DNA of 64,000 bases from Nitrospirota bacterium. GTDB lineage: Bacteria; Nitrospirota; Thermodesulfovibrionia; Thermodesulfovibrionales; Dissulfurispiraceae. How positions within the stretch are numbered: position 1 is the first letter of the stretch; each line of letters begins with the position of its first letter. The DNA lies in NCBI GenBank assembly GCA_040754455.1, contig JBFMCP010000002.1, positions 64,001-128,000 on the forward strand, read 5' to 3'. Shown here piece by piece: positions 1 to 15,592 of the stretch. Under the pieces are notes generated by a model. The model was not told the origin of the DNA, did not search any database, and saw nothing but the letters and a program-made list of their open reading frames with translations. The translations under genes and the position numbers were made by a program.

Positions 1-2
1 AA

Positions 3-620
3 CACCAGGCCAAAGATCCGGCAAGTATTGCCCTTTATCCGGTCTGTGCAGCTTGCGAGGACGGCGCCAGGCGCGCAGCTGAGACGCCGGCGTCATTGCC
101 CCTGAGTCCCCGGAAGACTGCGAAAGCAATGATCGAGAGACCTCGCATTGTCGTTTCAGAGAAGCTCTCAGAGGTTATCAAAAAAACAAAAGATCGAGCA
201 ATCCAAGAAATAGAGGCATCCGTATCGGCGCAGCCTGAGCCAGGCGCGCCGGAGGCAAAGGAGGAAACCCGTATGGCCACAAAGAAAGATAAGAGGTGTC
301 GTATCCCGGGATGTAAAAGCAACAAGGTCAAAGACGACCTTTGCACAAAGCATTTCCGGAAAGAGCATGGAGCGGCTCCCTTCGGCAAAGGGGCAGCGCC
401 GAAAGAAAAAAAGAATAAGAAACGCGATGTGAACGTCACGCCCCCCCCCGAAAATTTCCAGGACATCAATCGACAAGCCGGTCATCGAGAAGCTGCTGCA
501 GGAGCTCCTGACAAGGGCGGAAGAGGTTCGCAGACTCTACACAACGCTGTATGTCATGAAGGAGTACGGCGCGGACATCGAGCTGCCCGACATCAAAACA
601 TTGGTGGGGGCATAGCGTGA
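3..620 (+). CDS. Hypothetical phage protein, 5'-truncated, possible frameshift at C9 tract (441-449)
   Basis: Frame is open from position 3; Cys/His motif CRIPGC..LCTKH; a more protein-like C-terminus lies in another frame after the C9 run. Confidence 0.55.
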   Translation, partial: HQAKDPASIALYPVCAACEDGARRAAETPASLPLSPRKTAKAMIERPRIVVSEKLSEVIKKTKDRAIQEIEASVSAQPEPGAPEAKEETRMATKKDKRCRIPGCKSNKVKDDLCTKHFRKEHGAAPFGKGAAPKEKKNKKRDVNVTPPPENFQDINRQAGHREAAAGAPDKGGRGSQTLHNAVCHEGVRRGHRAARHQNIGGGIA

Positions 621-724
621 AGGAGAAAACTCTGGCGCAGCTATTCAAACCACTGATCGAGAAATACGGTTCCCGGCGGGTGGCCGAGGCAATAGATGAA
701 TTTCTCAAGAAAGGCAGGAAGTAG
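617..724 (+). CDS. Small hypothetical protein (35 aa)
   Basis: GTG start, VKEKTLAQLFKPLIEKYGSRRVAEAIDEFLKKGRK; fills the gap between flanking ORFs. Confidence 0.5.
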   Translation: MKEKTLAQLFKPLIEKYGSRRVAEAIDEFLKKGRK

Positions 725-725
725 G

Positions 726-977
726 ATGTTGTCCACACAGGAATTACCAAAGGAGTTTATAGGGCACACTGCTATCAACAATGCATACGTCATCTGCATA
801 GCGTGCAGCAACCACATCATTATCATCGATGGGAGCTCTCGCACATGCCCATTCTGCAACAAGGGGCATTATGACTACCGGGCCGATGAACGTGCAGTCT
901 TCTTCACTGATTACAGGCAGCTCCCTATAACAAAGTTTTCAGCACAGTCAAATTTTTCACTGGAGGTAACAATATGA
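726..977 (+). CDS. Zinc-ribbon hypothetical protein
   Basis: CIAC...CPFC; stop overlaps next start (ATGA). Confidence 0.6.
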   Translation: MLSTQELPKEFIGHTAINNAYVICIACSNHIIIIDGSSRTCPFCNKGHYDYRADERAVFFTDYRQLPITKFSAQSNFSLEVTI

Positions 978-1597
978 GCAAAAAAGAATTGAAGGATCTG
1001 AATTCAGGCACACTCTGGGGCCGTATCGCCTCAGCTATTAGAAAGAAGTCGGACGGGGGCAAGCCTTATATTTTTATCACTCTTGAATGCGGCAATGAGT
1101 TCCTGGGCAATGTGCAGACATATGTCCGACTCTGGGGCGAGGAGCGCGTGGAGAAGTTCCTGGATTATTACAAGCAGCATCCTCATGACGCTTATCGTTT
1201 CTTCTGTTTCTTCAACCAGTACGAGGACGACGGGAGAATCCTCAGCAATTATACGGCTTACAAATGGGTCCCCTACCAGGGCTCGGAACTGAAAGCTACA
1301 TTTATTTTGAGGGGTAAGATCACCGGCGGGGACCTATCGGCAGATGAACCATATTTGAACCTTTACCTGAAGCGTGAAGGCGGCGAGGGATACGAACCTG
1401 CTGAGGAAAAGTTCTTGGTCTATCTCCATCCCAAGATGGTTTTTGTCAAAGGGGCGTCCCGTGAGGATCTCAAGGAGGATGCTCATGTCGAAATAGCGGG
1501 CTACCTGCGAGCCAAGGAGCCTGAGGACAGCTTTGGCCGGCAATCGAGCGATATCCGGCCGTACGTGATGGAAATGATCGTTTATCCGCCATTTTAA
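974..1597 (+). CDS. Putative tandem OB-fold ssDNA-binding protein
   Basis: Two SSB-like halves (NSGTLWGRI...LWGE; TFILRGKI...VEIAGYLR); GGAGG RBS. Confidence 0.5.
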   Translation: MSKKELKDLNSGTLWGRIASAIRKKSDGGKPYIFITLECGNEFLGNVQTYVRLWGEERVEKFLDYYKQHPHDAYRFFCFFNQYEDDGRILSNYTAYKWVPYQGSELKATFILRGKITGGDLSADEPYLNLYLKREGGEGYEPAEEKFLVYLHPKMVFVKGASREDLKEDAHVEIAGYLRAKEPEDSFGRQSSDIRPYVMEMIVYPPF

Positions 1598-1608
1598 GGA
1601 GGGGAAGG

Positions 1609-2037
1609 ATGGCTTATTCACAGCATCAGGAACTGTTCAGCAATGCCGGTCTCGAGACCGCCACATTTGCCGGCAATGTCTGTCTCGAGACCGGCTACAG
1701 CTGCGTAGAGTGGCTCTCCTGGTTCAGGGCTCACCATTCGCAGCTTGCTGCGAAATACCAGGCGGCTGAGGAGAAGATCAACACGCTCTGGGGCAAAAGC
1801 GACAGCAAGAGCATGGGAGAGTTTCAACGGGCCATAAAGAACTGGACCGATGCTATCAAGCTTGCCGTCGAAAAATACGTTGCCTGGAGGAAGGAGCAGG
1901 GGCATCCGCTGGACTATGTTTCGGAGCTGCCGGCGGAGGAATACAAGGGGCCTAAGACGCTGGCCGAGGCGATTGTGCAGGGGTGTGTGACTATGGAAAT
2001 AACAGTTAAAGAAAAACAATTTGCGGGGTGCGTGTAA
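1609..2037 (+). CDS. Hypothetical phage protein
   Basis: Strong AGGAGG RBS; operon packing. Confidence 0.65.
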   Translation: MAYSQHQELFSNAGLETATFAGNVCLETGYSCVEWLSWFRAHHSQLAAKYQAAEEKINTLWGKSDSKSMGEFQRAIKNWTDAIKLAVEKYVAWRKEQGHPLDYVSELPAEEYKGPKTLAEAIVQGCVTMEITVKEKQFAGCV

Positions 2038-2333
2038 TGGCAATAGTTACGCTCAATTTTAAGGTCAACACCGAGAATTTCCCTCTCACGTTCAGCAAAC
2101 AGCGGAGAGATTTTTTCAAGCGCCTGGCTGAAGAGGCTAAAGGCGATGATGCGAAGAAAGCTGCCCTGGAGAAGGCAGAGTTCTTCGGCGCTATTGTCGA
2201 AGGCCTCGAACGGGCGCAGATGGCTGGTGACAACCTCATGCTGATCATGCGCAACCTGATCCAGCCCTATATCGACAAATACGGCCGAGAGACGGTCCTC
2301 GACATGATCATGTCGAGCCTGGGCGGGAAATGA
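2037..2333 (+). CDS. Hypothetical phage protein
   Basis: TAATG coupling with upstream gene. Confidence 0.65.
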   Translation: MAIVTLNFKVNTENFPLTFSKQRRDFFKRLAEEAKGDDAKKAALEKAEFFGAIVEGLERAQMAGDNLMLIMRNLIQPYIDKYGRETVLDMIMSSLGGK

Positions 2334-2701
2334 AGATCATCCAGGAATATCCCCTTAGGATCGAGGAAGAGCAGCGGTTGATGCTGCCTCCAGATTCGGA
2401 GGTCCTGGCGATCGTCATTAAGTTGTGCAAATCAGTTCAATATTCCCTTGAGGGGATGTCATGGACACCAGAATGGTCCCTGATCCTCTGCGCGAAGATA
2501 TACAAAGACAGCGAGCCGACTGAAGAATGGATCATCAAGATGATCAAGAGCAGGGAAGAGTTGGGGTGCCCTAACGGAGACTATAAGACAACGGTTCAAT
2601 GGGGTGATGATCTGTACCACATTTACTGTGCTCCGAAGCCGGAGCCGTATGCCTGGTATGACAAAAAGCCAAAGGACGATGGAGAGATCGTCTCGCCCTG
2701 A
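2330..2701 (+). CDS. Hypothetical phage protein
   Basis: ATGA overlap; 123 aa. Confidence 0.6.
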   Translation: MKIIQEYPLRIEEEQRLMLPPDSEVLAIVIKLCKSVQYSLEGMSWTPEWSLILCAKIYKDSEPTEEWIIKMIKSREELGCPNGDYKTTVQWGDDLYHIYCAPKPEPYAWYDKKPKDDGEIVSP

Positions 2702-2909
2702 GAAAGTCGATCCTAGGGCCTCTCAGGAGGTCGACCGGAGCAGGTTCGACCCCGATGTGCAGAAATGTCTCATGTTGCTGGATAGAGTTTTTAGAAAGGA
2801 AATTACAGCGGAGCAGATGGAGAGGATGCTGAAAATACATTATTACAAGCCTCATCAAACAAACTGCCGTCACAGGCGGGAGAAAAAGAACCAGCCGAGG
2901 TTAATGTGA
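2679..2909 (+). CDS. Hypothetical phage protein
   Basis: AAGGA RBS before ATG 2679; stop overlaps next GTG. Confidence 0.5.
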   Translation: MERSSRPEKVDPRASQEVDRSRFDPDVQKCLMLLDRVFRKEITAEQMERMLKIHYYKPHQTNCRHRREKKNQPRLM

Positions 2910-3070
2910 ACTGCACTATTTGCAAAGAGACTTATGAGGGTAATCCTCCTTGTGATGAATGTCTAGCTCTGCTCATAGGCCCTAAGGCTGCACCGACTCC
3001 CCTCCTGGATGAGCTTGAGACAGGGCCTTGGCCGTCTTTTGTGACAGAGGACGGGGGACCCGGAGAATGA
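2906..3070 (+). CDS. 54-aa CxxC/CxxC microprotein with DsrA N-terminal-like motif (not in ORF track)
   Basis: MNCTICKETYEGNPPCDECLALLIGPKAAPTPLLDELETGPWPSFVTEDGGPGE; GAGG RBS; 4-nt overlaps with genes on both sides. Confidence 0.7.
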   Translation: MNCTICKETYEGNPPCDECLALLIGPKAAPTPLLDELETGPWPSFVTEDGGPGE

Positions 3071-3306
3071 AAACCTCAAACATTATTGATGTCAGAGGAG
3101 ACTGTATGTACAAGCAACCGACGACGTTTGACTGGCTCGTTAATTCTTCATCCGAGGAAACGAGGAATACTGCTCGGCGGACCGATGATATCGCCGTCCT
3201 CGAGAGCGCCCTCGAGGCGGTGAAGAAAAAGGGAGAAAAGACAAAAGAGAAGATCATCCAGGCGCGCATTAACCGGCTCAGAAAAACAGGGAGCAATAAC
3301 CAGTGA
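3067..3306 (+). CDS. Hypothetical phage protein
   Basis: GGAG RBS, ATGA overlap. Confidence 0.6.
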   Translation: MKTSNIIDVRGDCMYKQPTTFDWLVNSSSEETRNTARRTDDIAVLESALEAVKKKGEKTKEKIIQARINRLRKTGSNNQ

Positions 3307-3629
3307 GTAGCCTAGCCCATTTAAAGCCTGCTACGAAAGCTCTCTTTATCCCTCTCAAGAAAGAGCACTTCGATGCCTTCGAGCGTGGAGATAAGACGTT
3401 CGAGTTCCGGCAGTTCGGCAAAAGGTGGAATGAGAGGACCTGCAAGGTCGGAAGACCTGTAGTGCTGTCCTGTGGATACGGGAAGGCTCGGAGGCTCTCT
3501 GGGACTATTAAGTCTTTTGCGAAGAGTCCTGTCTGGAAGTCAAAGGGCTACGCTGAATATTTACTCTGCTATGGAGGTCTGGCTATCGGGCCAGTTGCTG
3601 AGATAGAAATTGAAGTTAAAAGGAGGTGA
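3303..3629 (+). CDS. ASCH domain protein
   Basis: LFIPLKKEHFDAFERGDKTFEFR matches the ASCH GxKxxExR motif. Confidence 0.8.
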   Translation: MSSLAHLKPATKALFIPLKKEHFDAFERGDKTFEFRQFGKRWNERTCKVGRPVVLSCGYGKARRLSGTIKSFAKSPVWKSKGYAEYLLCYGGLAIGPVAEIEIEVKRR

Positions 3630-3635
3630 TGAACA

Positions 3636-3851
3636 ATGTCCTATTCAGTGAATCAGAAGTGTTACGACTGCAAGAAGCAGCCTAAATGTTCCGACGGAAA
3701 CATTATCCAGGCTGCAGTATCACTCATTCATACACTTGGAACCGACAAGGGGCACTTGGGAGGCGGCAGTATTACCCATGAGTGTACCTATGGGTTCGAG
3801 GATAAGAATGCACCGGAAGCAGCACCGGCCGGCGAACAGCAGCCGACATAA
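3636..3851 (+). CDS. Small Cys-rich hypothetical protein
   Basis: AGGAGG RBS; CYDC..C motif. Confidence 0.6.
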   Translation: MSYSVNQKCYDCKKQPKCSDGNIIQAAVSLIHTLGTDKGHLGGGSITHECTYGFEDKNAPEAAPAGEQQPT

Positions 3852-3861
3852 GGCTGAGACG

Positions 3862-3889
3862 AAAGGGGAGGGGCAACTCTCCCCTTTTT
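3862..3889 (+). terminator. Intrinsic terminator
   Basis: AAAGGGGAGGG-GCAA-CTCTCCCCTTT stem followed by T run. Confidence 0.7.
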
Positions 3890-3921
3890 AATTAACTCTT
3901 AACTTTTATGAAAGGGAAACA

Positions 3922-4164
3922 ATGATCACACTGGGACAGAAGTATAAAGACAAGATCACCGGCTTTGAAGGAGTGGCTACAGGCTACGTGCAATACATCA
4001 GCGGCTGTAATCAGGCGCTTCTTGTTCCAAAGGTTTCAGCAGATGGAACACTGCGCGAATCACTATGGTTTGATGTTCAGCGTTTGGAGGTTGTGGGGAC
4101 AGAAGTAATCAAGCTCGATAACGGCGAGAAGCCCGGATGTGATTGTCCGGCACCTAAACGGTAA
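3922..4164 (+). CDS. Small phage hypothetical protein
   Basis: LGQKYKDKITGFEGVATG...GCNQ...WFD pattern resembles common small phage proteins. Confidence 0.7.
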   Translation: MITLGQKYKDKITGFEGVATGYVQYISGCNQALLVPKVSADGTLRESLWFDVQRLEVVGTEVIKLDNGEKPGCDCPAPKR

Positions 4165-4628
4165 TGATCCTGGCATTTCTTCAAAACCTCTGGGTGAAAG
4201 AGCCTGAAAGAGCTCGAGCGATACTCGAAAGAGAGTCCGAAGAGTTCCGTGTTCAGTTTATTAGGAGACTGTTGTTTCACGGAGGGTTGACCGGCAAGCG
4301 TATTCAGCAATGTTTCGGTGATCTTACCTCGATCATCATTTTTGAGGAGGCCACGCGGGAGATATCCGGGGACTCGAAGACGATCTGTCCTCCGGATCCT
4401 CGGCATATAGCTGGATGCCTGGACCGATATCGGCCGGTGGTAGTACTGACATTCGGGAAGGTGGCATCAGATGCTGTTGCGCCTCTATGGAAAGGGCGTT
4501 TATTGGTTTGCCCTCATCCTGCAGCGAGACAGCGCGACACAGTAACAAAGCTGCAAGCTGCAGCGGAAGAACTCACGGAATGGTGGGTGGAGAACTATGG
4601 CATGCCCGCACAGAGAGCAGATCGGTAA
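4164..4628 (+). CDS. Uracil-DNA glycosylase superfamily-like protein
   Basis: RPVVVLTFGKVA and PHPAAR motifs. Confidence 0.6.
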   Translation: MILAFLQNLWVKEPERARAILERESEEFRVQFIRRLLFHGGLTGKRIQQCFGDLTSIIIFEEATREISGDSKTICPPDPRHIAGCLDRYRPVVVLTFGKVASDAVAPLWKGRLLVCPHPAARQRDTVTKLQAAAEELTEWWVENYGMPAQRADR

Positions 4629-4790
4629 GGGCCTCTACTTCTGCTTACAGCAGGGGGCATGCTGCACTCGCTGCAGAGCGGTGCCGGTGGAGATTCGGCT
4701 CAATGTGAAAAAGGGAGCCAGCAATAAAACTACGAGCGCACTGAAGAAAGCGCTCGTGCACGCCGCGAGGCATTTTATGGAGGGGAAGTA

Positions 4791-4988
4791 ATGTACGGGT
4801 ATCTCTATGATCGAGCTTTGACGTTGGAAATGCGTGAATGGCTGCGGGCGAGTTGGGAGATTTTCCAATTTAACTTTAGACCGGACATCACGGTCATCCC
4901 CCGCATAAGGATGTTTCATCGGAAGATGATGATTTGTTTAAGCGGCTGGCTTGGAAGAGTCGGCAAAAAGAAAAAGAGAGGCAAATAG
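4791..4988 (+). CDS. Hypothetical phage protein
   Basis: GGAGG RBS; coupled to neighbours. Confidence 0.5.
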   Translation: MYGYLYDRALTLEMREWLRASWEIFQFNFRPDITVIPRIRMFHRKMMICLSGWLGRVGKKKKRGK

Positions 4989-5488
4989 TGGATATTTACG
5001 TTCCCGATCGGCAGGAACTTAATTCCATAAAGAAGCCCGCAAAAGTGAAGGGCAACAGATGGGGCTTCTGCGGCATCGCAGCCATGAGCGCGGCGATCGG
5101 GATTGCCCCATTAAAGATATGCGACTCAATTCCGGACTGGCCCGGATATACGCCCTCGAGGATGCTTATCGAAACGCTGGCGAAGTTCGGTTATGACTGC
5201 AGGAGGATCCTGATCCCGAAACTGGAGCAGCAAATGTGGCCGTTATATCAAGCAGGGCATCCCTCCAAGATAGCGATCGGCCGTATTTACTGGAGCGAAG
5301 GGAAATACGCCGATTCTCACTGGATTTGTTTTAACTGGAGCATGGAGAGTCTGGACGATCCTTATCCGGGACTATATGACAACACCTTCTACGATGGCTG
5401 GTGGGATACCAGGCATTTGAAATTCTATATCGAGAACAGGACGGCGAAGCTCAAGAGTTTGTATTTCGTCATAAAGGGGGAGAAATAA
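4988..5488 (+). CDS. Papain-like (C39-like) cysteine peptidase domain protein
   Basis: CGIAAMS, SHW and YDN in Cys-His-Asp order. Confidence 0.5.
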   Translation: MDIYVPDRQELNSIKKPAKVKGNRWGFCGIAAMSAAIGIAPLKICDSIPDWPGYTPSRMLIETLAKFGYDCRRILIPKLEQQMWPLYQAGHPSKIAIGRIYWSEGKYADSHWICFNWSMESLDDPYPGLYDNTFYDGWWDTRHLKFYIENRTAKLKSLYFVIKGEK

Positions 5489-5490
5489 TT

Positions 5491-6450
5491 ATGGGAACCA
5501 AATCGGTTCAGAAAAAAGGTTTGCTGTATCTATCTAAGGATGATCTTCTCACTCATCCGAAGAACCTGCGGCGTTTCTATCCGGAGTACCAGGTGCGCGA
5601 GATGGCTGAATCGATCCGCGCGGTCGGCGGAGTGCTGCAGGCGCTGCTAATCGTCCATAGCGGCCAGGCCGGGAAATACTTTGTCGTAGACGGCAATATG
5701 CGGCTTGCCGGCGCGAGGGCATTAGGGGATGAATGTCCTCCGCTCAAATGCGAAATAGTAGACAAGGGCAAGGCCGAGCAGCTGCTGGCCATGGTGGTGA
5801 CTGCGAAGTTTCGTTACGAACCCGATCCCATAAGCGAGGCGCTCCATTATAAACGCTTGATCGAAGAGGAGGGCTATAGCGCCCCCCGAATTTCCAGAGC
5901 AACGGGCACACATACCGCCACTATCTATACAAGACTTAAATTGCTCGAGCTCGATCCGGAGATACAGGAGCTGATAGGTAATCGCAAACTGCCTTCAGCC
6001 CAAGAGGCGATTAATGCCCTTCTCTCAATCTCTGATCCACGGGTGAGAGTGAAGCTTGCTCAGCGCCTGGCAAAGGATGAGCCGACTATAAAGGCTGTTG
6101 TCGCTGCCTGCGATCGGCTTCTTTCTCAGCTTGGAAAAGTCTCGGCTTCCAAAACGAAAGGATCTCCGGCCCTTGCACATCAAGAAACATCAGGTGCTGG
6201 CATCAACCGGAATTCGACGGTGGACATGGAGCACGTGCGCGATGCGGCCAAGGCAACCTGTAAAGAATGCGACATTCGACTCGGGCAGCTTTCGTCAGCC
6301 CCGGAGCCTGCATGGGCGCTGATCACGCACGCCGCTGAACAGACATGTGATGCCTGTAACATCCGGGAAGTAATCGGTGCCTGCAAAAACTGCCCGGCCG
6401 TCGACATTATGCGCAACCTTATTAATGCAATGACGGTAGGGCGCGCATGA
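5491..6450 (+). CDS. ParB/Srx N-terminal domain protein with C-terminal Cys cluster
   Basis: HPKNLRR...SIRAVGGVLQAL...VVDGNMRL; HTH; three CxxC pairs. Confidence 0.8.
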   Translation: MGTKSVQKKGLLYLSKDDLLTHPKNLRRFYPEYQVREMAESIRAVGGVLQALLIVHSGQAGKYFVVDGNMRLAGARALGDECPPLKCEIVDKGKAEQLLAMVVTAKFRYEPDPISEALHYKRLIEEEGYSAPRISRATGTHTATIYTRLKLLELDPEIQELIGNRKLPSAQEAINALLSISDPRVRVKLAQRLAKDEPTIKAVVAACDRLLSQLGKVSASKTKGSPALAHQETSGAGINRNSTVDMEHVRDAAKATCKECDIRLGQLSSAPEPAWALITHAAEQTCDACNIREVIGACKNCPAVDIMRNLINAMTVGRA

Positions 6451-7613
6451 TGGATAATCTGGATCTGCTCATCGAGACCTCAACGGTCCAGGGACAGCTC
6501 GATGCGGGGATATCGCCATCGGTCGTTGCTGCGCGCTCATCACTCGGTACGCGCGGGGTTGCAGTGCTTTCGGGCAAAAAGGGTGAAACCAGGAAGGCAA
6601 AGATGCCGAGCTGGACCCCGGAAGAAGATAAGTTCCTGGAGACGTATCTCGGCATCCTTTCCGAGGAGGAGATCGCCGAGGCCCTGGGGAGGACATATTA
6701 TGCTGTGCACGTCCGATGGAAACGGGATCTGGCATTAAGAGCGCCCTCAAAGCGGCCTGATGTTTTGACGGGCAACCAGGTGGCTTATGGTTTGGGAATA
6801 GACATTCATTCCGCTATGCATCTTATCGACCGGGGCATTCTACCGGGATGGGAGCTGCCTTCTGTGCGCCGGATGCGAATCGTCAGGAGGATTGTGCTCC
6901 TTCAATTCATAACCAATCCTCTGAACTGGTGTTACTTCAAGCCGGAGAGGGTTGGACGAGCTCAATTTTCACCGAAGACGATGCTTCGAAAAGGGAAGGC
7001 ATACGATGTTGAGTTTTGGGAATATGCTCGCCGCCTGGTGCTGAAGCGGAAAAGCCTCTGGAAAGATGAGTGGTGGCGAATCGGCGAGGTTGCCCGGTAT
7101 CACGGGGTAGATCACTCCCTTGTAAATAAATATATCCACGACGGCGTCCTGAAAGCAACAGACTGGGGCAACTGGTGGATTCTGAAATCGCACGCGATGG
7201 ATCCTTCATTGCATTTCGTTACCGGGAAAGGGCGTAAGGGAGTTGACGTTATCAATGTGAGCCAGCGTGCAGAGGCATTCATCGTGCTTGCTGAAGCGGT
7301 CGGGCTGATGGAATCGGAGATCGCTGCATTGATGACATGGAAAGAGAAACGTATCACATATCTGAAGCGCCGGCTGCGCGAACAGGGACGCATTCCGCAG
7401 ATCATCAAAGAGAACAATCTGAAGGTCTATTACAACAAGAAAACGGAAGAGGTTTATGCGGACTGGAAGAAACACCGTGATCGGTTCCCGCGGCTTTCAA
7501 AGCTGATGGGACGGCGCGGGCGCCCAGGGCGGCGGAGCCGCGTAGAGGCGAAATATATCAACCGTGTGAAACGAAAGGCTGAGGTATATAGAGAGTGGAA
7601 AAGCAGAAGATAA
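6447..7613 (+). CDS. Multi-HTH DNA-binding protein
   Basis: WTPEEDKFL...EIAEALGRT plus MerR/Xis-like HTH segments. Confidence 0.6.
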   Translation: MMDNLDLLIETSTVQGQLDAGISPSVVAARSSLGTRGVAVLSGKKGETRKAKMPSWTPEEDKFLETYLGILSEEEIAEALGRTYYAVHVRWKRDLALRAPSKRPDVLTGNQVAYGLGIDIHSAMHLIDRGILPGWELPSVRRMRIVRRIVLLQFITNPLNWCYFKPERVGRAQFSPKTMLRKGKAYDVEFWEYARRLVLKRKSLWKDEWWRIGEVARYHGVDHSLVNKYIHDGVLKATDWGNWWILKSHAMDPSLHFVTGKGRKGVDVINVSQRAEAFIVLAEAVGLMESEIAALMTWKEKRITYLKRRLREQGRIPQIIKENNLKVYYNKKTEEVYADWKKHRDRFPRLSKLMGRRGRPGRRSRVEAKYINRVKRKAEVYREWKSRR

Positions 7614-8164
7614 GAGAGCATCAATTCATAACTCCTGCCGAATGTGACTGCGGCGGTACCGGGCATTGCAATATCTGCGATGGAGGATTGGCCATATGTA
7701 AGATCTGCGGAGGAGCTGAAGGATCTCTTCCGACCGAGTGCCCTGGCGAAAAGATGATCGCTCATCAGGATGAGGCTGTCTACGCCGGCAAGCTCGATTT
7801 CTTTAATGGTCAATGGACCGTGATTCTATCCTCACACCGAATTGATGCTTACAGCGATAATCACCGGCACGAGGATATCCCCCAAGCTTATCGTGTTTGT
7901 GAAAATGCCGATTCAGTTACCGGGCTTATGATCTACGGGCTCTATAACGGCGAGTGGATAGCGAATCCTAATGGACGTGCCTTGATCAGGCATCTCCTGG
8001 ATGAACTGCAGAAAGCACAGGAAGAAATTAAGATTTCTGATAAGCTCCTCGCCGAACGCAATCGAGTTTTAGAGGCAATCCCGGAATGTCCAATACATGG
8101 CAAGCAGTGTATTCCACACGCGATGGATTGGATCCAGCGGAAGAGGGGGAAGGTGTCAGCATGA
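7595..8164 (+). CDS. Cys-rich hypothetical phage protein
   Basis: CNICDGGLAICKICGGAEGSLPTECPG motif. Confidence 0.6.
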   Translation: MEKQKIREHQFITPAECDCGGTGHCNICDGGLAICKICGGAEGSLPTECPGEKMIAHQDEAVYAGKLDFFNGQWTVILSSHRIDAYSDNHRHEDIPQAYRVCENADSVTGLMIYGLYNGEWIANPNGRALIRHLLDELQKAQEEIKISDKLLAERNRVLEAIPECPIHGKQCIPHAMDWIQRKRGKVSA

Positions 8165-8324
8165 AAGGTACTGAAGAAAATACTCAGAAAGGGAATCATG
8201 ACCCAAAGATGGTTTCCTTTGAATTAAGGGAAGTGGGAGATGTAGAAATAATCCTTCTTCCTGCAAAGGAATGGAAGCTGGTATCTAGTGATCAGGATTT
8301 AATTGTGCTGAGCAGAGGGAGGGG

Positions 8325-8555
8325 ATGATGGCTGAATATCAGGTTTTGAAGAGACCCGAAAACGATCCTATTTGTTACGACGAGGAGACGATCATCGAGG
8401 CCTGCAAGCGATCGGGCTGTGATGAGGGCCAGAGGGAAGACTGTCACCTCAGGATGAGAGAGACGAACGACCTTAGTTGCCTCGACTGCTTTTGTCGTTG
8501 TGTAGATATCGAGAGGGGAAAGGGGAAGAGTGATGGCAAAGATATTCAGAGCTGA
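8325..8555 (+). CDS. Small Cys-rich hypothetical protein
   Basis: RBS and operon packing. Confidence 0.5.
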   Translation: MMAEYQVLKRPENDPICYDEETIIEACKRSGCDEGQREDCHLRMRETNDLSCLDCFCRCVDIERGKGKSDGKDIQS

Positions 8556-8733
8556 ACTTATTATCCAGACTGAAGATGAAGTGACGGAAAGCGAATTGAA
8601 TGATGCTATCTTGGCTCAAATCGATGGAGAAGATACGATCGAGACCGGTAGCCGGATGATTTTGAATGAATCAACCGTAACGTTTTTGGAAGATGTACGG
8701 GATGAAGCAATTGAAATGGGAGGCCCTAAATAG
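8530..8733 (+). CDS. Small acidic hypothetical protein
   Basis: RBS; abuts primase start. Confidence 0.55.
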   Translation: MMAKIFRAELIIQTEDEVTESELNDAILAQIDGEDTIETGSRMILNESTVTFLEDVRDEAIEMGGPK

Positions 8734-8736
8734 CCT

Positions 8737-11700
8737 GTGTCTACTAACGACTTCGAAACAGTAAAATCATACCTCAACCTACTCAACGTCATCACCGGCG
8801 AGACCGGGCTCCAGATGAAGGGCGCTCATCTCGAGGAGTGCCCGTTTTGTCATCATCATGACTGTTTCAAGATTTACGATAACACGCAGACGTTCAAGTG
8901 TTTCTCTTGTGAGGGGCAGGGAGACGTTTTTGTATTCCTGCAGAAGTATCACAACATGGATGAGTTTGAATCGCTGAAGTATGCGGCCGGACTCGCTGGC
9001 GTGGATATAAAATCTCCTGAGCGCAAGGAGAAAAAGGAGAAGCCCGAGAGCGATCAGGAGAAGATGTATCGGCTCGCCTGGGAGCACTACCGGGCATCCA
9101 TCGAGGATCCGGCCAGCCCGGTGCGCAAATGGTTCATAGAGACGCGCGGCCACTCGGTCGACACGCTCAATAAGCTGAAGGTGGGAGCCTCCACCGGCAA
9201 GCTGCTGCCCTTCCTGAAGGAGCAGGGATTTGACGAGGAGGATGTCCTTAAATACGGCCTAGCGAAGAACAAAGACCACGAGGGAAAGGCGACTAAGCCC
9301 AGGGACTACTGGAAGCCGGGACTCGCTATCTTTCCGGTCTTCGATCACTCCGGGCGGATACTCTCTTTTACGGCCAAGGACCCTGAGAAGAAGATCCGGG
9401 CCACGCAGCTGGCCGGCAGCAAGAAGAAATGGCTACTCAACTATGCTGCACTCGGTAAAGGGTTTGAGCAGCTTCTCGTTGAAGGTGAGAATGATGAAGC
9501 AAGTCTGATAGATATTGGGTATGAGAACGTCTGCGGGACGGCCGGCGCGCCCGGGCAAGAGCAGATTACTCTCCTGAAGAACTTCCTCGCCGGCAAGACG
9601 GTATTTCTCTGGTATGACCAGGACAAGCAGGTCTTCCGGAAAGATCAGATCAAAGGCTCCGGAGGAGCCCACCATATTCGCTTCCTCTACGAGGGGCTGG
9701 CCGACACCGATGTGAAGGTGAAGATCATCGTGCATCCGCCGCTGCCGTCGGGCGAGGAGGCGAAGGATCCTGATGCCTACATCCAGGGACTCCTCCGGGC
9801 AGGCAAGTCACCGGCAGAGGTCCGCTCGATCGTCAAGGAGCTCAAGAATGAGGCCCTGGAGCCGCTGGAATGGGAAATACACCAGCTATCTCTCATTAAG
9901 GACGTGAAGGACCGTCTGGAGGCCTTCAAGCTGCGGAAACTGCCGCAGGCGATCAATGCGATTACCTCGGGAGCGGATCAGGAGGTATACATCCAGGAAG
10001 CGGCAAAAGCGATCGGCATCAAGATCGATAACGTAGAGGATCTGGTTAATAATGCCGTTGACCTCTATGAAAGCCTTACGGAGAGGTTCCGCGGTGAGCT
10101 GAAGAAGGCGGACCCTTACGACCTGGCGATGTTCATATTCAAGTGGCTGGGAAACGGTTCGGGAGCGAAGTTCTACAAGACCGACGAGGGGAAGGTGTAT
10201 CTCTTCTATCAGCGCACGAGCTACGAGATCGGGAACAATCTGGAGTTCAACACGCTGATGTTCCAACTGACGCATCTGGCGGCCGTGGAGAAGCCGGGAA
10301 GCACGGTGTGGTACTACCTGCAGGTGCTCGCCAACTCTCACGGAGAGCGCGTTGAGATGATGACGTGGCTGCATACGGACCGGGAGCGCGATGTTGTCTA
10401 CCTGCATCTGAATGCCTCTCATAATAAGATCATCCGATTAGCGCCCGGAGAAGAGCCTCAGCTAATCGATAACGGGACGAATGAGCACGGCATCTTGCTC
10501 ACCAAGAGTCCCCAAATGCGCCATTTCGAATACACACCAAACTCAAGCGAAGCCGAAGGCTTCGCGGCGCTCAGGACGCTTCTCATGGATACCACTCCGG
10601 CGGAAACGCCCATGAGGTTCTTTCTCGTGGCCTGGGTGACGTCTATCTTCATGATGAACTTCCAGAGTGACCGTGGCCTGCTGCAGATCATTGCAAACAG
10701 CGCGTGCGGAAAATCGAAAGTGGCCGAGAGGATCTCGCAGCTCATCTACAATGAAAATTATGTCGGCCGGGGAACGAATGCTGCAGAGACACGAGTGGCC
10801 ACAGTGAACCCGATCGTCTTCCAGGATAACCTTGAAAACCGGAACCTGAATCAGGGGACGGTCGACCTGCTCCTTCTCATGGCGAACAATACGCATAAGC
10901 CCAAGGCGAAAGGAGGCTCAGACACCGAGGTCCTCATGCAGCGGCTGTCTTCCCTGGGAGTGATCACTTCAATTGAAGCATTCCCCGGCAGGTACCCGGA
11001 GCTCGTGAACCGGACGTTCCCGCTGCTGCTGGATCCGGCGCGGAAGCAGAACGGCTACATGCACGATGAGGTGATGCGATCGATCAGCAAGCACCGGAAC
11101 CAGATACTCTCTTGTCTGCTCCGTATGATCAGTAAAGAAGTGTTGCCGAATCTCGAGGAGCGGAAGTACTGGAGCAAGCACCTGCAGACGAAGTATCCGG
11201 GGCACGCGAAAGAGAGAAACAACGAGCACCTCTGCACGATGATGGTTATCCTCGAGGCGATGCTGAAGAGGATCCCATACGCAAAGGGCAACGTCCCGAC
11301 GAAGACCCAGGCGATGGAGCTGCTCGATCACTGGATAAGGACCATGGAGGAACAGGAGCACGCGACGGCCATCACCTCGAACACTCTATTGAATCTGATG
11401 GACGGCCTGGCCAGGGAGGTACTCATTGCTATCAAGCATAAGGGGAATACTCTTCTTTATTCAGACAGCACGGAATTCGATCCTCCGTATCCGGACTTCA
11501 TAGGAGGGAAGGGGCGAGGTACTCGAGTAAAGATCCATGAGGATCCTATTTATCTGGAAACCTTCTATTTGACGGATGTTATGCAAGAGGAGGCGGGACC
11601 TGAGGACGAGGATGTAATGGAATCCTTTCAAAGGCTGGAGTTCATCATTACGGCTGCGGATCTCTATACGCTCTTCAACCGTTACTGCAAGAACCAGGGC

Positions 11701-11877
11701 ATCCGTAACCCCTTCGAGAACCCGACGTCCCTTGGCGCCCGGATCTCGAACGACAGGGCGATCCTTGAGAAAGGCGGCTGGACCTATATCCAGCGAAAGA
11801 AGGACGTGGCCCAGTACAAGAAGATCGCCGGTAACTGGCATTGGCGGTTCTCGAAGAAGGTAAAGGTGATAAACTAA
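8737..11877 (+). CDS. Phage DNA primase (CHC2 zinc finger + Toprim) with C-terminal P-loop/helicase-like domain
   Basis: CPFC..HDC...FKCFSC zinc finger; VEGENDE and YDQD Toprim motifs; KDPD; ANSACGKS Walker A-like. Confidence 0.88.
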   Translation: MSTNDFETVKSYLNLLNVITGETGLQMKGAHLEECPFCHHHDCFKIYDNTQTFKCFSCEGQGDVFVFLQKYHNMDEFESLKYAAGLAGVDIKSPERKEKKEKPESDQEKMYRLAWEHYRASIEDPASPVRKWFIETRGHSVDTLNKLKVGASTGKLLPFLKEQGFDEEDVLKYGLAKNKDHEGKATKPRDYWKPGLAIFPVFDHSGRILSFTAKDPEKKIRATQLAGSKKKWLLNYAALGKGFEQLLVEGENDEASLIDIGYENVCGTAGAPGQEQITLLKNFLAGKTVFLWYDQDKQVFRKDQIKGSGGAHHIRFLYEGLADTDVKVKIIVHPPLPSGEEAKDPDAYIQGLLRAGKSPAEVRSIVKELKNEALEPLEWEIHQLSLIKDVKDRLEAFKLRKLPQAINAITSGADQEVYIQEAAKAIGIKIDNVEDLVNNAVDLYESLTERFRGELKKADPYDLAMFIFKWLGNGSGAKFYKTDEGKVYLFYQRTSYEIGNNLEFNTLMFQLTHLAAVEKPGSTVWYYLQVLANSHGERVEMMTWLHTDRERDVVYLHLNASHNKIIRLAPGEEPQLIDNGTNEHGILLTKSPQMRHFEYTPNSSEAEGFAALRTLLMDTTPAETPMRFFLVAWVTSIFMMNFQSDRGLLQIIANSACGKSKVAERISQLIYNENYVGRGTNAAETRVATVNPIVFQDNLENRNLNQGTVDLLLLMANNTHKPKAKGGSDTEVLMQRLSSLGVITSIEAFPGRYPELVNRTFPLLLDPARKQNGYMHDEVMRSISKHRNQILSCLLRMISKEVLPNLEERKYWSKHLQTKYPGHAKERNNEHLCTMMVILEAMLKRIPYAKGNVPTKTQAMELLDHWIRTMEEQEHATAITSNTLLNLMDGLAREVLIAIKHKGNTLLYSDSTEFDPPYPDFIGGKGRGTRVKIHEDPIYLETFYLTDVMQEEAGPEDEDVMESFQRLEFIITAADLYTLFNRYCKNQGIRNPFENPTSLGARISNDRAILEKGGWTYIQRKKDVAQYKKIAGNWHWRFSKKVKVIN

Positions 11878-11978
11878 TGACCTCTCTGACTATTCCTAAT
11901 ACATTCAAAGAGATATACGCAAAAAGCTCTTTTTTTTGCCTGACGAAAAAAATTAGATCGAGCATATTTTTTAATTTA

Positions 11979-12188
11979 AACTTCCCAACTTCCCCTAAAT
12001 CTAGTAACTATATGAATTTTAATTTTAATTTAATAGTGAAGTTTGGGGAAGTTGTTGGGGAAGGGTTGGGGAAGTTGGGGGAAGTTAGGGGGAAGTTGGA
12101 CGACCCTGCTTGCAAACTTCCCCTAATCGTAAGTCTCTCAATCATAAGGGAAACTTTCAGGCTAGGGGAAGTGGGAAGTTGGGGGAGG
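11979..12188. repeat. Iteron-like GGGAAGTT/AACTTCCC repeats, putative replication origin
   Basis: Multiple direct and inverted copies of GGG(G)AAGTT flanking an AT-rich tract, directly after the primase gene. Confidence 0.65.
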
Positions 12189-12602
12189 CAGGTACATGCT
12201 CAGCTTGGCAGCGAGATCCTCGTTTCTTCTCTCCTTTTTCGGTCCTATTGCTATCAAAAAAATAGATTGTTTTTAGTTATTTTTATAGCTCTTGTTATTA
12301 GTTTTTCTTTTAATGTTCTCAAGGATTTAGATACTCTCTGTGCTGCCTGTCTATTGGTTGGTTTTTCCCGTGGGGGCTGGAACAGTCGGAAATCAACGAA
12401 ATCGTCAGAGATCATGACAGTCTCAATTGGTGGACATATAGGAACAATTGTTTACAATGTTGTTGAGGGTATTAAAAATATTTTATATAGTATAAACAAA
12501 TACTTACTCTGTCAGTTCTTTGTCGGTGGTAGCTGCTTTTCTTCTGTGATATTTTTTCTACTGAGTAACTTATTGAATTGTATAGGTTGGCACGAGAATA
12601 AT

Positions 12603-12630
12603 ATTTTACATAATGGCTCTTCTAGGACAT
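12603..12630 (-). other. dif-like tyrosine recombinase site
   Basis: Minus strand ATGTCCTAGAA-GAGCCA-TTATGTAAAAT: 11-6-11 layout; right arm matches E. coli XerD arm TTATGTTAAAT at 10 of 11. Confidence 0.5.
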
Positions 12631-12873
12631 TTAAGTATTATCATCAGATCGTCAATAGTTTGAATTTTCAGTGGTCAGACCTCCCCCCCTGGCAAAATAT
12701 TTCTAAGTTTAGGTGCCAGCCCTCCCCCATTACTCTTACTAAAATGGGGCATATTCCCAAGCGCTTTATAGCGGTCACTATACATTTGTTTAGTAGTGCT
12801 CTCCTTAGTGTCGAAAGTTTGTTTTTAGCTGATGTCTGTGGTTTTCGAAAAAGGGGGGCGCGGGGGGATAGAT

Positions 12874-13206
12874 ATGACTGCTGAGCAACACAAGCAGGTC
12901 GAGGCCCTGAGCAGCTGCAGGCTCGGATATTGGAACCAGTCGGGACGTTTTATCGGGCAGCTCCTGGAGAAGCCCGAGACGGAGCTCACGGATCAGCAGG
13001 AATGGTATCTCAAGTTCCTCTGCTATAAACATCGCCGGCAGCTCAAGAGGTTCGGTATTCAGGTCCCTCGTGAATTACCGATCCGCCCGGACAAAGAAAA
13101 GCAGCCCATGACGGTAAAAGTTACTCATCCCTCCGAGCTGCCGGGACGTAAGCGGAGGCCGGTGCAATATGATGTACGAGAATTCTGGACGGCAAAGGAG
13201 TTTTAA
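12874..13206 (+). CDS. Hypothetical phage protein
   Basis: Return to phage-like GC content after the AT-rich region. Confidence 0.6.
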   Translation: MTAEQHKQVEALSSCRLGYWNQSGRFIGQLLEKPETELTDQQEWYLKFLCYKHRRQLKRFGIQVPRELPIRPDKEKQPMTVKVTHPSELPGRKRRPVQYDVREFWTAKEF

Positions 13207-13471
13207 GATGAGGTGGACATACATCAGCGATCTGAGAATAAACATTATGAGGAATTTAATAATTGGCGGGTTAATGATGTTTGTTATGCTTCATGTTTTT
13301 ATCTGGCAGTTCCCCAATTACTTTGAAGATTATTCCACACTGAGTCTGGAGGATAGAGCATGGTTATCCATTCTTCAGTTCGGAATAATTTTTGAGGTGG
13401 CCTTCTGGGGATCAGGATTCTTAGAGGGAATGATAAAGAGGCATCGAGAGAAAAACAATGCTGGCAAATAA
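13169..13471 (+). CDS. Small membrane protein
   Basis: Two hydrophobic segments; start uncertain. Confidence 0.5.
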   Translation: MMYENSGRQRSFKMRWTYISDLRINIMRNLIIGGLMMFVMLHVFIWQFPNYFEDYSTLSLEDRAWLSILQFGIIFEVAFWGSGFLEGMIKRHREKNNAGK

Positions 13472-13509
13472 GGAAATAGTGCAAACGCATAATAGAGCCG
13501 AGGGGAATA

Positions 13510-14523
13510 ATGTTTGAGAACTATCTAACAGGCTTCGCCGAGCAGGAGCGTGTTCTTCACGGGCTTGATGAAGCCTCAGTGTCGGCCTATCTTAAAAAAT
13601 TAAAAGAGTTCTTAGAATGGCTCGAAGGCAACGGGCATCCGGAGGAAATAGACATCCTCAAACAACGTGAGCTCATTGAGCAATATCTGCAGTGGTGCTT
13701 CCGTAGGGGGAATAAGAATACCACGCGAAACACCAAGCTCACGGCCATCACCAAATTTTATCGTTATCTCGTCTATATCAAGGCCCTTGATACTGATATC
13801 ACCGCCGACATCCCGCGACCGAAGACTCCACGTCGGTTTATGCAGGCGTACACCCGGGAGGACGTGCTCCGCCTTTTCCGGGCGATTCCGCTCCTTGACC
13901 CTAAGAAGGCAGAGAAAGCCCTCCGTGATGTCGTGATCATCATCCTGGGCGCTTTCTGCGGCTTCCGTATCGATGAGGCGCTTACCACCACGTTGAGCTC
14001 GATTGAGGACGATGGGAAATATATAAATATCCACGTTGAGGCAAAGTTCGGCAAGCATCGCTCCGTATATCTCTGGGCAGCGCCTTCTAACTTTGTGCGT
14101 TCTTATGTTGCGGTCCGCCTCGGGCATGGCGCGAAGAAAGATTCTCCGTTGCTGGTGTCATATAACAAGGGCGGAAAGCCCAAGGGTAATGCTCTCACGC
14201 ACGGAGCCATTGACCAGCTGATCAAGGGCCTGGCTGCGAATGCAGCCCTCCGGAAGCCGGAGAATCATTACCACATGTTCAGGGCAGGTCATATCAATGA
14301 CCTGCAGCGGATTAAAGGTTATACGCTCCCGGCGATCGCCAAGCGCGTCGGGCACGAGAATATAGAGACAACGTTTATTTACATCAAAGACCGGGACCGG
14401 ATTCACCATGAATACCCGAGCCTGGCCGCTTTCTGGAAAGATTTTGGTCCCCAATTGTGGGAGAAAGGAGATACTGATGCTAACGGCAGTAGTCATGTTG
14501 GAGGAGGAGAGATTGTCGAATAA
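13510..14523 (+). CDS. XerC/D-like tyrosine recombinase
   Basis: N-terminal SAM-like domain; GFRIDE (R), HMFR (HxxR), VGHENIETTFIY (H, Y). Confidence 0.9.
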   Translation: MFENYLTGFAEQERVLHGLDEASVSAYLKKLKEFLEWLEGNGHPEEIDILKQRELIEQYLQWCFRRGNKNTTRNTKLTAITKFYRYLVYIKALDTDITADIPRPKTPRRFMQAYTREDVLRLFRAIPLLDPKKAEKALRDVVIIILGAFCGFRIDEALTTTLSSIEDDGKYINIHVEAKFGKHRSVYLWAAPSNFVRSYVAVRLGHGAKKDSPLLVSYNKGGKPKGNALTHGAIDQLIKGLAANAALRKPENHYHMFRAGHINDLQRIKGYTLPAIAKRVGHENIETTFIYIKDRDRIHHEYPSLAAFWKDFGPQLWEKGDTDANGSSHVGGGEIVE

Positions 14524-15007
14524 CAAAAGAACGGCCAACTGGGAACGTCTCATACCGCTTTTTCAGTCCTATGTCGATACGTTCGGGGCCGAGCTGGGGG
14601 GAATGGTCATTGATTACATCGCCCGAATGATCGGCGGGTACCGGATCTCTTTCCCGGAAAAGCTGACGCCGATCACCAGGCATTCGGAGAGCTGGGTTAT
14701 CCTCGCCCAGTTTTATGATGTCCTATGCTCGGACCTCAGCAAGATCGAGATGCCGAAGGCACCTGAAGAATTCCGTAACGGCTCCAGGCTGTCGGGGAAC
14801 CGGATAGGCCAGGTCGTTATGAAGGAGATGTTTCGTAGACTCAAGGGCCATCGGATTTCATTTGTCAGGCTTGAAGAGATGCATCGCATCGAGCGTGACG
14901 AGAAGATCCGCAAAGAGCGGAAGGAGCATGGCACCAGCGTCACCGTCCTCGCCGAGCGCAGCGGCCTGGATGAAGTGACGATATGGAGAATATTGAGGGA
15001 GGAATAA
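14477..15007 (+). CDS. Mor/C-family transcription activator
   Basis: C-terminal ERDEKIRKE...LAERSGLDEVTIWRIL; IGGYRISFP; start may be 14513. Confidence 0.75.
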   Translation: MLTAVVMLEEERLSNNKRTANWERLIPLFQSYVDTFGAELGGMVIDYIARMIGGYRISFPEKLTPITRHSESWVILAQFYDVLCSDLSKIEMPKAPEEFRNGSRLSGNRIGQVVMKEMFRRLKGHRISFVRLEEMHRIERDEKIRKERKEHGTSVTVLAERSGLDEVTIWRILREE

Positions 15008-15010
15008 ATA

Positions 15011-15238
15011 GTGAAGGATTTATCTCATTTGAAATCTATTTTCAAATTTCTGCCAGGCGATAAGGTCGAGACGATTGTGGGGGATCTGGGCTTTGTTGAA
15101 ACCTGCGCTATAGAGGCTGAAGGTCGTGTGAAATATTACGTTGTTTGGAAGGGCGGCAACGGTAGATGGTTTTATGAGGATACCTTAACTGCGGGATGGA
15201 ACACGTCGAAGTCCGTGAGCGGTTTTAAAACAAAATAG
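15011..15238 (+). CDS. Hypothetical phage protein
   Basis: GGAGG RBS; FKFLPGDKV...WFYE. Confidence 0.55.
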   Translation: MKDLSHLKSIFKFLPGDKVETIVGDLGFVETCAIEAEGRVKYYVVWKGGNGRWFYEDTLTAGWNTSKSVSGFKTK

Positions 15239-15592
15239 GAGACCGAATATGAAGAACGCGAACTGCATCTTCAATGATCGGGGTGCCTGGTGCAAGAACG
15301 AGAAGGTAAAGCGGCGCTTGTTTGGCCTGGGGGCGAGAGTTTGTGCTGTGTTTAATGGGATGTCAGCACCAGCAAGAATATCCTCGACCAAAATCCCTTC
15401 CCCCAGTCCCGTCGCCGAGGGTGGAGCACCTGGGGATATAAGAGCGTAGAATGTTGGAGTGTTGGGGTATAATAATTCCATGAATTACGGCCTGGTCTAT
15501 AAGTCTAAGAGGAAGCGAAACAGTGGAGTTCTTTGGGCTCTGGCGTTGGCTGTGATAGTTATAGGGATTATTTCTCTCTGGGGTCTATGGAG

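Follow-up and report, generated by a model that had tools for sequence, protein, structure and literature searches.

A prophage microprotein that carries a copy of the DsrA N-terminal arm, a candidate docking motif for dissimilatory sulfite reductase

Dissimilatory sulfite reductase drives the global sulfur cycle. Phages carry dsrA and dsrC/tusE as whole genes among their sulfur auxiliary genes, which Kieft et al. (2021, PMC8190135) assign to the oxidation of sulfur and thiosulfate, and the dsrA/dsrC auxiliary genes of SUP05 phages such as Lau218 are treated by Roux et al. (2014, PMC4164917). Here, we describe a microprotein of 54 amino acids (aa) that is encoded by a prophage of a bacterium of the Nitrospirota, at positions 2906..3070 (+ strand) of the window, by which we mean the whole stretch of 64,000 nucleotides (nt) that was analysed (G000:C2:64001-128000; the host genome comprises 3.27 Mb in 92 contigs). 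The microprotein seems to consist of two parts: a small zinc-knuckle head, followed by a flexible tail in which the N-terminal arm of DsrA is copied.

The relation to DsrA is supported by several independent comparisons. The preliminary description of this DNA had given TPxLD[EQ]LExGPWPSFV as the conserved start of DsrA proteins, and this motif proved to be real: a phmmer search of all PDB chains (E<=10) returned five matches, all of which are DsrA and represent the five distinct DsrA sequences (E 3.7e-5 to 1.7e-3), with query residues 29/30-48 aligned to DsrA chain residues 3-23, and the NCBIfam dsrA profile TIGR02064 was matched at positions 1-15 of its 402. In the microprotein the motif occupies residues 31-46. 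It is the only membership feature of DsrA that the microprotein possesses, as nothing beyond DsrA residue 24 is present, the siroheme/[4Fe-4S] domains and the ferredoxin insert are missing, and the TIGR02064 score of 17 bits lies far below the whole-protein cut-off of 392.85 for a protein of ~400 aa. When host DsrA was searched against the whole genome by tblastn, contig C2 was matched only at window 2981-3049, with 78% identity over 23 aa (DsrA residues 2-24), and no further DsrA- or DsrB-like piece was detected by this search in the prophage, the window or contig C2, in agreement with the earlier statement that no other dsrA sequence is visible nearby. The homology in fact sets in four residues earlier (PK..P, residues 26-30). 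As a search of 1.84 billion representative proteins matched a DsrA fragment at E 4.3e-4, the likeness exceeds chance, and by sequence comparison the arm is homologous to DsrA residues 2-24. According to an AlphaFold2 (AF2) model, host DsrA has a helix at residues 8-14, a turn at residues 15-18 and the next helix at residues 19-31; the copied piece therefore comprises helix 1 (PLLDELE) and the GP(F/W)P turn, and ends with the first turn of helix 2. The N-terminus is among the most conserved stretches of DsrA, and no account of its role was found in the open-access literature searched.

Within the full microprotein sequence, MNCTICKETYEGNPPCDECLALLIGPKAAPTPLLDELETGPWPSFVTEDGGPGE, the layout previously noted, CxxC..CxxC followed by an 18-mer, is indeed found: the 18-residue core, TPLLDELETGPWPSFVTE, lies at window 2996-3049, inside an arm copy that spans 2981..3049 (+ strand; residues 26-48, PKAAPTPLLDELETGPWPSFVTE). 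Residues 3-19 (2912..2962, + strand) constitute a predicted zinc-knuckle head of the form CxxC-x9-CxxC, with cysteines at residues 3, 6, 16 and 19, as judged from a weak Pfam match and an AF2 model. The Pfam matches were solely sub-threshold zinc ribbons over these residues, such as Zn_ribbon_11 (PF11682; 13.5 bits, weak against a cut-off of 24, with both CxxC knuckles present), and a protein atlas gave weak zinc-ribbon and NinF leads only (scores 0.86-0.87, all <0.9). The single-sequence AF2 model places helices at residues 2-9 and 16-24, with a predicted local distance difference test (pLDDT) of 73-78, and leaves the arm as a low-confidence coil. The protein ends in an acidic glycine-rich tail, DGGPGE (3050..3067, + strand), which is read from the sequence.

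According to the sequence and the list of open reading frames (ORFs), the gene extends from a GTG start to a TGA stop. A ribosome-binding site (RBS), GAGGT (2897..2901, + strand), can be read directly in the sequence 4 nt 5' of the GTG, which is the first start codon in a frame open over 91 codons and which shares 4 nt (GTGA) with the TGA (2907-2909) of the upstream ORF. The latter is a small early gene (2679..2909, + strand, 76 aa from ATG 2679) without any family match, to which the microprotein gene is translationally coupled. The preliminary description had listed an RBS and 4-nt overlaps on both sides; the RBS and the 5' overlap stand, whereas the 3' overlap is doubtful, because the alignment of the downstream small early gene (3106..3306, + strand) with its sole relative (alignment A3; 49% identical, G068) points to a likely start at ATG 3106, which is preceded by AGAGGAG, instead of the alternative ATG 3067, which overlaps the microprotein stop as ATGA (3067-3069). 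The ORF thus has its own RBS, is in frame, is coupled to the upstream gene and lies inside a packed early operon; the microprotein is probably made from this operon after induction of the prophage. The stretch is carried by five DNA runs from two studies (groundwater and biofilm metagenomes), four of which may be its source, with no RNA run listed among its carriers, and the contigs from these runs are identical over the microprotein ORF, so that there is no population variation to analyse. Contigs from one biofilm run differ at window 2539 (G>C) and 2570 (C>G), inside the upstream gene 2330-2701, at a depth of 8, and at no position of the microprotein ORF.

The segment does not copy the dsrA gene of the present host. 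Over the 18-residue core, 16/18 aa but only 40/54 nt (74%) are identical to host dsrA; among the 16 conserved codons, 9 show synonymous differences, and the longest exact run common to the two sequences is 9 nt. An antisense or small RNA (sRNA) function was considered and ruled out on account of this short run. Two residues, K15->T and F18->W, are unlike those of host-family DsrA. The comparison was extended to 164 dsrA genes (30 from the host family, 62 from genome contigs and 72 from metagenome contigs). Identity to the 30 host-family genes amounts to 34-42 of 54 nt (mean 37.5), where the family among itself averages 42 (range 34-53), and the maximum against the 5' ends from both contig collections is likewise 42/54 (78%). 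In the protein, the arm has 12 positions at which all 30 host-family DsrAs agree, and the microprotein retains 11 of them; at the remaining one (K15) it has a T, which is common in other DsrA lineages. Moreover, the peptide is identical at 18/18 positions to real DsrAs (L072, L144, L145 and L187), and the window sequence PK[AA]PTPLLDELETGPWPSFVTE equals, save for two alanines, that of a DsrA clade reading MPE..PKPTPLL (L072, L144 and L145), whose dsrA genes agree with the window core at 39-42 of 54 nt. Given the 40/54 nt identity and the lack of a near-identical donor among the 164 dsrA 5' ends, a recent nucleotide-identical insertion, which would have spoken against the earlier proposal, is excluded, and sequence comparison establishes that none of the sampled dsrA genes was recently copied into the segment. 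The idea of a captured fragment of host dsrA is corrected accordingly: the segment is derived from dsrA, but not from the allele of the present host.

Furthermore, the arm recurs on other phage-associated small proteins, in the form PLLDE[LMF]ExGxWP[ST]F[VI]. At least four architectures besides that of the window protein carry it, which makes at least five small carriers in all, on phage-associated DNA. One of them is the P0010 family, for which a profile search yielded 11 sequences in 10 clusters, 40-50 aa long and 59-78% identical to the first sequence. Its members share a layout of a start, a few residues, [TAV]PLLDE[LMF]ExGxWPSF[VI], a short linker, PP[ED][ED]HDQGExGxGD[TA]G[ED] and a stop, in which P, L, L, D, E, W, P, S and F are invariant. 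P0010, one of the short matches to the microprotein, is not a DsrA fragment; it and its cluster mate P0014 have the same non-DsrA acidic tail. With hhalign, the P0010 profile (alignment A5) matched the window ORF at a probability of 98.2 (E 5.4e-14, residues 23-47, 68% identity over 25 columns) and the host-family DsrA alignment at a probability of 97.7 (E 1.4e-12, DsrA residues 3-24); the DGGPGE tail of the microprotein, which resembles the P0010-family tails by eye only, was left unaligned. Across 401 genomes of the host phylum, the same profile matched in 204, ending at model position 22-24 in every listed match; the window ORF is one of the matches, and nearly all of them lie in frames of ~330-560 aa (a few cut short), as dsrA starts would. 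The family member P0024 (L226:8001-8141; IMG/VR contig of 27.4 kb) stands between a gpV-like gene, to which it is coupled by ATGA, and baseplate wedge genes; sheath and tape-measure genes are found in the vicinity, i.e. it belongs to a myovirus baseplate module. Inferring the host of L226 from its baseplate protein was uninformative, as the latter is 31-33% identical to proteins of phages of many genera. The acidic tail is also met by itself, as the C-terminus of a 53-aa zinc-ribbon protein that the viral contig L223 encodes in its head module.

Additional carriers came from IMG/VR. A scan that required PLL gave 0 matches, because viral rdsrA genes read PNL or PML at this place, but a relaxed pattern worked and returned 63 stretches with 49 distinct ORFs. 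Full-length or contig-cut rdsrA accounts for 46 of them, with arms reading TP[NM]LDELE[NK]GPWPSF[VI][ST]G, one is spurious and two are new (L302 and L277). L302 encodes a 77-aa protein (MSLLDELESGPWPTFIRDLKT...) whose C-terminus contains Cys; the gene lies within a cluster of small early genes, and the 63-kb phage genome around it is complete and has terminal repeats. The top five PDB matches of this protein are all DsrA N-termini (E 0.009-0.014). L277 is a 105-aa fusion of the arm with DUF3850 (1.2e-22 for DUF3850) and adjoins integrase and S24 peptidase genes. In both proteins the arm follows directly after the start codon, as in DsrA. Finally, L224 carries two paralogs of 156 and 235 aa that combine a zinc ribbon with a coiled coil and a degenerate arm (TPLLDEMETGKAWPCFV), with a BLASTP E value to the window ORF of 2e-6. 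These paralogs stand in tandem (1373-1843 and 2273-2980) just upstream of a large terminase gene, and have a common zinc-ribbon/arm-like N-terminus and different C-termini. In another IMG/VR record, L273, the rdsrA ORF stops after 314 aa inside the stretch and could represent an auxiliary gene that has been truncated. Neither arm-only proteins nor the P0010 family were found described in the open-access literature searched, in which GPWPSF, HDQGE and PLLDEL were met in no relevant context.

Our best reading of these data, which we put forward tentatively, is that the microprotein may act as a DsrA-arm decoy or adaptor aimed at DsrAB. The arm would represent a selected short docking motif that takes the surface of DsrB, or of the DsrAB assembly, which normally receives DsrA's own arm, or that alternatively binds whatever partner reads the DsrA arm. 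The outcome would be either a disturbed assembly or activity of dissimilatory sulfite reductase, or a zinc-knuckle head tethered to the enzyme during phage growth, and the effect could thus go in either direction, inhibition or recruitment. With at least five carriers, one of which is a family that has diverged while its arm core was kept, a neutral fossil is hard to reconcile, and a selected role of the isolated arm is likely; in view of this recurrence on phage small proteins, a selected function appears more likely than a one-off fossil, and peptide mimicry, as already envisaged in the preliminary description, becomes more plausible. Docking is the most economical mechanism, although we would not insist on it. 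A single complex prediction without controls (host DsrA 25-394, DsrB and the microprotein) gave ipSAE values of 0.23 and 0.00 against a mark of 0.32, and speaks neither for nor against binding.

A broader and more doubtful proposition would be that phages repeatedly took the ~16-residue DsrA arm (PLLDE[LM]ExGxWPSF[VI]) onto carriers such as a zinc knuckle, an acidic tail, DUF3850 and a coiled coil, and that these proteins form a new effector class which docks onto dissimilatory sulfite reductase and re-tunes or hijacks sulfur respiration. If such an effector class exists, the 54-aa protein of the window would be its first member with a known dsrAB-bearing host, and arm-only phage proteins would exemplify peptide mimicry of a respiratory enzyme, a strategy unlike whole-gene carriage. 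In that case the DsrA N-terminus, too, would probably have a function, and a 16-residue sequence tag would be available by which such effectors could be found in viromes. If, on the other hand, the arm is a neutral fossil, it represents a well-documented capture of a host-gene fragment and nothing more.

Several observations weigh against a decoy or adaptor aimed at DsrAB. Inhibition of the host's main respiratory enzyme brings no obvious benefit to the phage. The exact protein is also a singleton, both among proteins of 29-95 aa in a collection of 5.8 billion clusters (10 matches from 11 candidates, the other nine sharing the arm only) and among the 1.84 billion representatives at any length, where the five matches were the protein itself, two repeat proteins and two DsrA fragments. 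It was found neither in IMG/VR nor among the best 80 loci each of the genome- and metagenome-contig collections, of which 30/64 parts each were scanned; a DsrA-type arm, as defined by a motif regex, was present in 62/80 and 72/80 of these loci, respectively, and the long-coverage loci that were inspected (L055, L117, L124, L136, L156 and L195) turned out to be dsrA read through from upstream. Likewise, 65 of 68 host-family genomes gave a match, with the full ORF in G000 only, and the best match in nearly all others is the N-terminus of dsrA in a frame of ~400 aa. Among INPHARED phages the motif occurs solely in the full rdsrA of Lau218, and window DNA 600-8200 had no match among these phages and short or partial matches only in 301 genomes of the order. 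The 123-aa and 108-aa proteins encoded upstream and downstream have no relatives in IMG/VR, the anchor alignment A3 found none in the genome-contig collection, and the anchor gene (A3) is present in 2/390 genomes of the class, G000 and G068. The latter is the only syntenic relative, with homologues of two downstream genes (49% and 64% identity), and in place of the microprotein its slot holds a phosphatase gene, which encodes a 143-aa dual-specificity/tyrosine phosphatase (L025, G068:C22, 9545-9976; Tc-R-P / DSPc matches) and precedes the homologue of the downstream gene. Accessory genes thus vary at this slot. The same microprotein, which the preliminary description proposed to look for in related phages, was found neither in the protein and viral collections nor in the syntenic relative; this absence of orthologues is weak evidence, however, because the phage lineage is poorly sampled.

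To these points must be added that no P0010-type gene was found in the 401 sampled genomes of the host phylum, nor in 401 genomes sampled from a second lineage of dsr-bearing bacteria, for which the phylum of a Desulforhopalus genome was taken (E<=1e-12; such an empty result by itself shows nothing), and that full dsrA or dsrC occurs in 0/5 of the arm-bearing viral records. As regards coding potential, the score of 3.47 for the annotated frame is the highest among the six frames and is reached by only 0.3% of the off-frame windows taken from the long genes of the phage, but falls within the lowest 4% of their true in-frame windows; the ORF is therefore coding-like but atypical. Moreover, the divergence described above may reflect either recent capture from an unsampled dsrA or long retention by selection, which are inseparable because much of it could have arisen inside real dsrA genes.

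In the course of the small-protein searches, three clusters (P0003, P0005 and P0007; 68-74 aa, on contigs of up to 2.49 Mb) were noticed that combine rDsrA-like N-termini with a Cys/Gly-rich extension, and all three depart from the DsrA frame at one common position (...LKRLRD.EG... and then DDERPAR...). They look like a +1-frame reading of dsrA and could represent a recurrent frameshift, a pseudogene or a sequencing artefact.

How do other explanations fare with this evidence? An unlikely yet serious one is that the fusion is a by-product, in which illegitimate recombination joined ~70 nt from the 5' coding end of a dsrA gene, in frame, to the end of a small phage zinc-knuckle gene, leaving a neutral tail or a functional knuckle without any link to Dsr. 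The isolation of the microprotein in all protein and contig searches, the other accessory gene in the slot of its sole syntenic relative, the low codon score and the prediction of the arm as low-confidence coil would all fit, and dsrA diversity is large enough for a recent donor to have escaped sampling. Against this stands the maintenance of the motif by further small proteins of phages, among them a diversified family whose arm core is invariant, and the fact that no 'DsrA-illegal' residue occurs in 18 positions despite an nt identity of at most 78% to every dsrA compared; in addition, the homology runs from DsrA residue 2 to a structural boundary, and the prophage holds no other host-gene fragments. 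Somewhat less likely, in our view, the arm could be a general docking peptide directed at a target other than DsrAB (a chaperone, a protease, another reader of the DsrA N-terminus, or something unrelated to sulfur), with the dsrAB of the host being incidental. One P0010 member does reside in a myovirus baseplate module, whose baseplate protein is, among the matches listed, 31-33% identical to proteins of Vibrio, Shewanella, Acinetobacter, Aeromonas and Oceanospirillum phages, with 127 matching baseplate records, mostly from Flavobacterium (80) and Vibrio (34) phages; the payloads on the arm are very diverse, and the missing dsrA and dsrC in the five viral records, as well as the missing P0010-type genes in both sets of 401 genomes, point the same way. 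Yet among cellular proteins the arm profile is specific to DsrA N-termini (204/401 phylum genomes, model positions 1-24), all PDB matches of the arm are DsrA, and the sole case with a known host is a dsrAB organism.

The remaining explanations carry much less weight. That the microprotein is the relic of a decayed full-length phage dsrA auxiliary gene, of which deletions left the first codons fused to a neighbouring ORF, is improbable: while full-length rdsrA is common on viral contigs (46/49 motif ORFs in the IMG/VR scan, and Lau218) and the arms of L277 and L302 start right after the start codon as in DsrA, the window arm stands behind a zinc knuckle instead of at the N-terminus, no further dsrA remnant is left downstream or elsewhere in the prophage, and viral rdsrA arms (TP[NM]LDELE[NK]GPWPSF[VI][ST]G) are unlike the core of the window. 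The atypical codon score might suggest that the ORF is untranslated and that the DNA or RNA itself acts, e.g. by serving a regulator or sRNA of the dsrA 5' region as a decoy, or by providing homology for recombination, but with 74% identity to host dsrA and exact runs of at most 9 nt, conservation at the protein and not the nucleotide level, an RBS, a start codon and upstream coupling, and a motif that recurs as protein in other phages, we regard this as very improbable. A chance or convergent resemblance to DsrA, to which only the shortness of the matched stretch (19-23 residues) would lend itself, is scarcely credible in view of the E value of 3.7e-5 against the PDB, where all five matches fall at the same place of DsrA, the E value of 4.3e-4 in 1.84 billion proteins, the 18/18 identity of the peptide to real DsrAs and the profile-profile probability of 97.7%.

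The genomic setting is that of a temperate phage in a dsr-bearing host. The prophage measures ~58 kb and occupies window positions 1..50982, its left end (C2:57056) lying upstream of the window; it is delimited by a 45-bp direct repeat (att) at C2:57056-57100 and window 50938-50982. The right copy (attR) equals the 3' 45 bp of a tRNA-Glu(CTC) gene (50938..51013, - strand), after which a tRNA-Gln gene follows at 51109-51182. Immediately past the left repeat and just upstream of the window, genes for an integrase, a cI-like helix-turn-helix (HTH) protein and a CII-like protein are found, and the prophage genes in the window include small early genes, ParB-like, primase, Mor-like activator, terminase, portal, head, tape-measure and tail genes and a diversity-generating retroelement. 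From this gene content, the prophage looks temperate, siphovirus-like and apparently intact. The microprotein gene is embedded amid co-directional small early genes of no assigned function, and no other short host-gene fragment was detected in the prophage. Regarding the host, the earlier suggestion of a dsr-encoding bacterium was confirmed: dsrA (540 bits) and dsrB are located on contig C13, a DsrD-like ORF lies directly 3' of dsrB (23.1 bits, just below the cut-off), dsrC is also encoded, and aprA (933 bits) lies at C2:136529-138433, ~21.5 kb past the right end of the prophage on the same contig. Judged by its genes, this is the set of a reductive-type sulfate or sulfite reducer that uses DsrAB for respiration.

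Apart from the microprotein, a few other features of the prophage were observed. The diversity-generating retroelement (window 46411-49581) has its variable repeat (47381-47486) at the 3' end of a tail gene (46411-47496) and its template repeat at 47932-48037; the two repeats are 89% identical, 12/12 mismatches fall on a template A, and the reverse transcriptase is encoded at 48547-49581 (phrog_1423, 2.8e-147). After the retroelement and still inside att lies a stand-alone response-regulator receiver gene (49636-50142), which has dozens of host paralogs and may be prophage cargo. Midway through the prophage, where the replication module gives way to the late module, a second, XerC/D-like tyrosine recombinase and a Mor-family activator are encoded (13510-14523 and 14408-15007), and three ParB-like proteins are encoded at 5401, 17634 and 21749.

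Compared with known systems, the microprotein comes closest in origin to the phage dsrA/rdsrA auxiliary genes, which are also dsrA-derived phage DNA and bear the arm motif at the N-terminus of their DsrA. However, phage rdsrA genes encode ~430-450 aa and are full-length as judged by ORF length and by DsrA-like sequence past the arm, whereas the microprotein retains 23 residues, has no catalytic or cofactor-binding part and is fused to a zinc knuckle, and hence is not a full-length phage dsrA. Furthermore, phage dsrA genes are, according to PMC8190135, auxiliary genes for the oxidation of sulfur and thiosulfate, which they presumably boost, while the prophage of the microprotein resides in a reductive-type host. 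With the small phage zinc-ribbon proteins (Zn_ribbon_11, and the NinF-like proteins of lambdoid nin regions), the microprotein shares the CxxC...CxxC pattern, a length of ~50 aa and a place among the early small genes of a temperate phage, but every score stayed under the family threshold and, unlike the microprotein, none of these families has a DsrA-like arm. The P0010 family has the arm core in common with it and is also small, with an acidic glycine-rich C-terminus and, for the one member with DNA in hand, a phage context. It lacks a zinc knuckle, however, and presents the arm at its N-terminus, whereas in the microprotein the knuckle precedes the arm and only DGGPGE follows; the long conserved acidic tail of P0010 does not align with the tail of the microprotein, which therefore does not show the arm-plus-tail layout of that family, and the P0010 member with context belongs to a baseplate module instead of an early operon. 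Our reading is also reminiscent of inhibitory protein fragments and microProteins (Savinov et al. 2025, PMC11831152), which likewise consist of one interaction element of a larger protein that could compete for a native interface. While the known inhibitory fragments are engineered or are eukaryotic microProteins, the gene described here belongs to a phage and is built on a respiratory enzyme of the host, and the likeness is drawn from sequence: by alignment its arm derives from DsrA residues 2-24, and it is this short piece that would serve as the putative interface.

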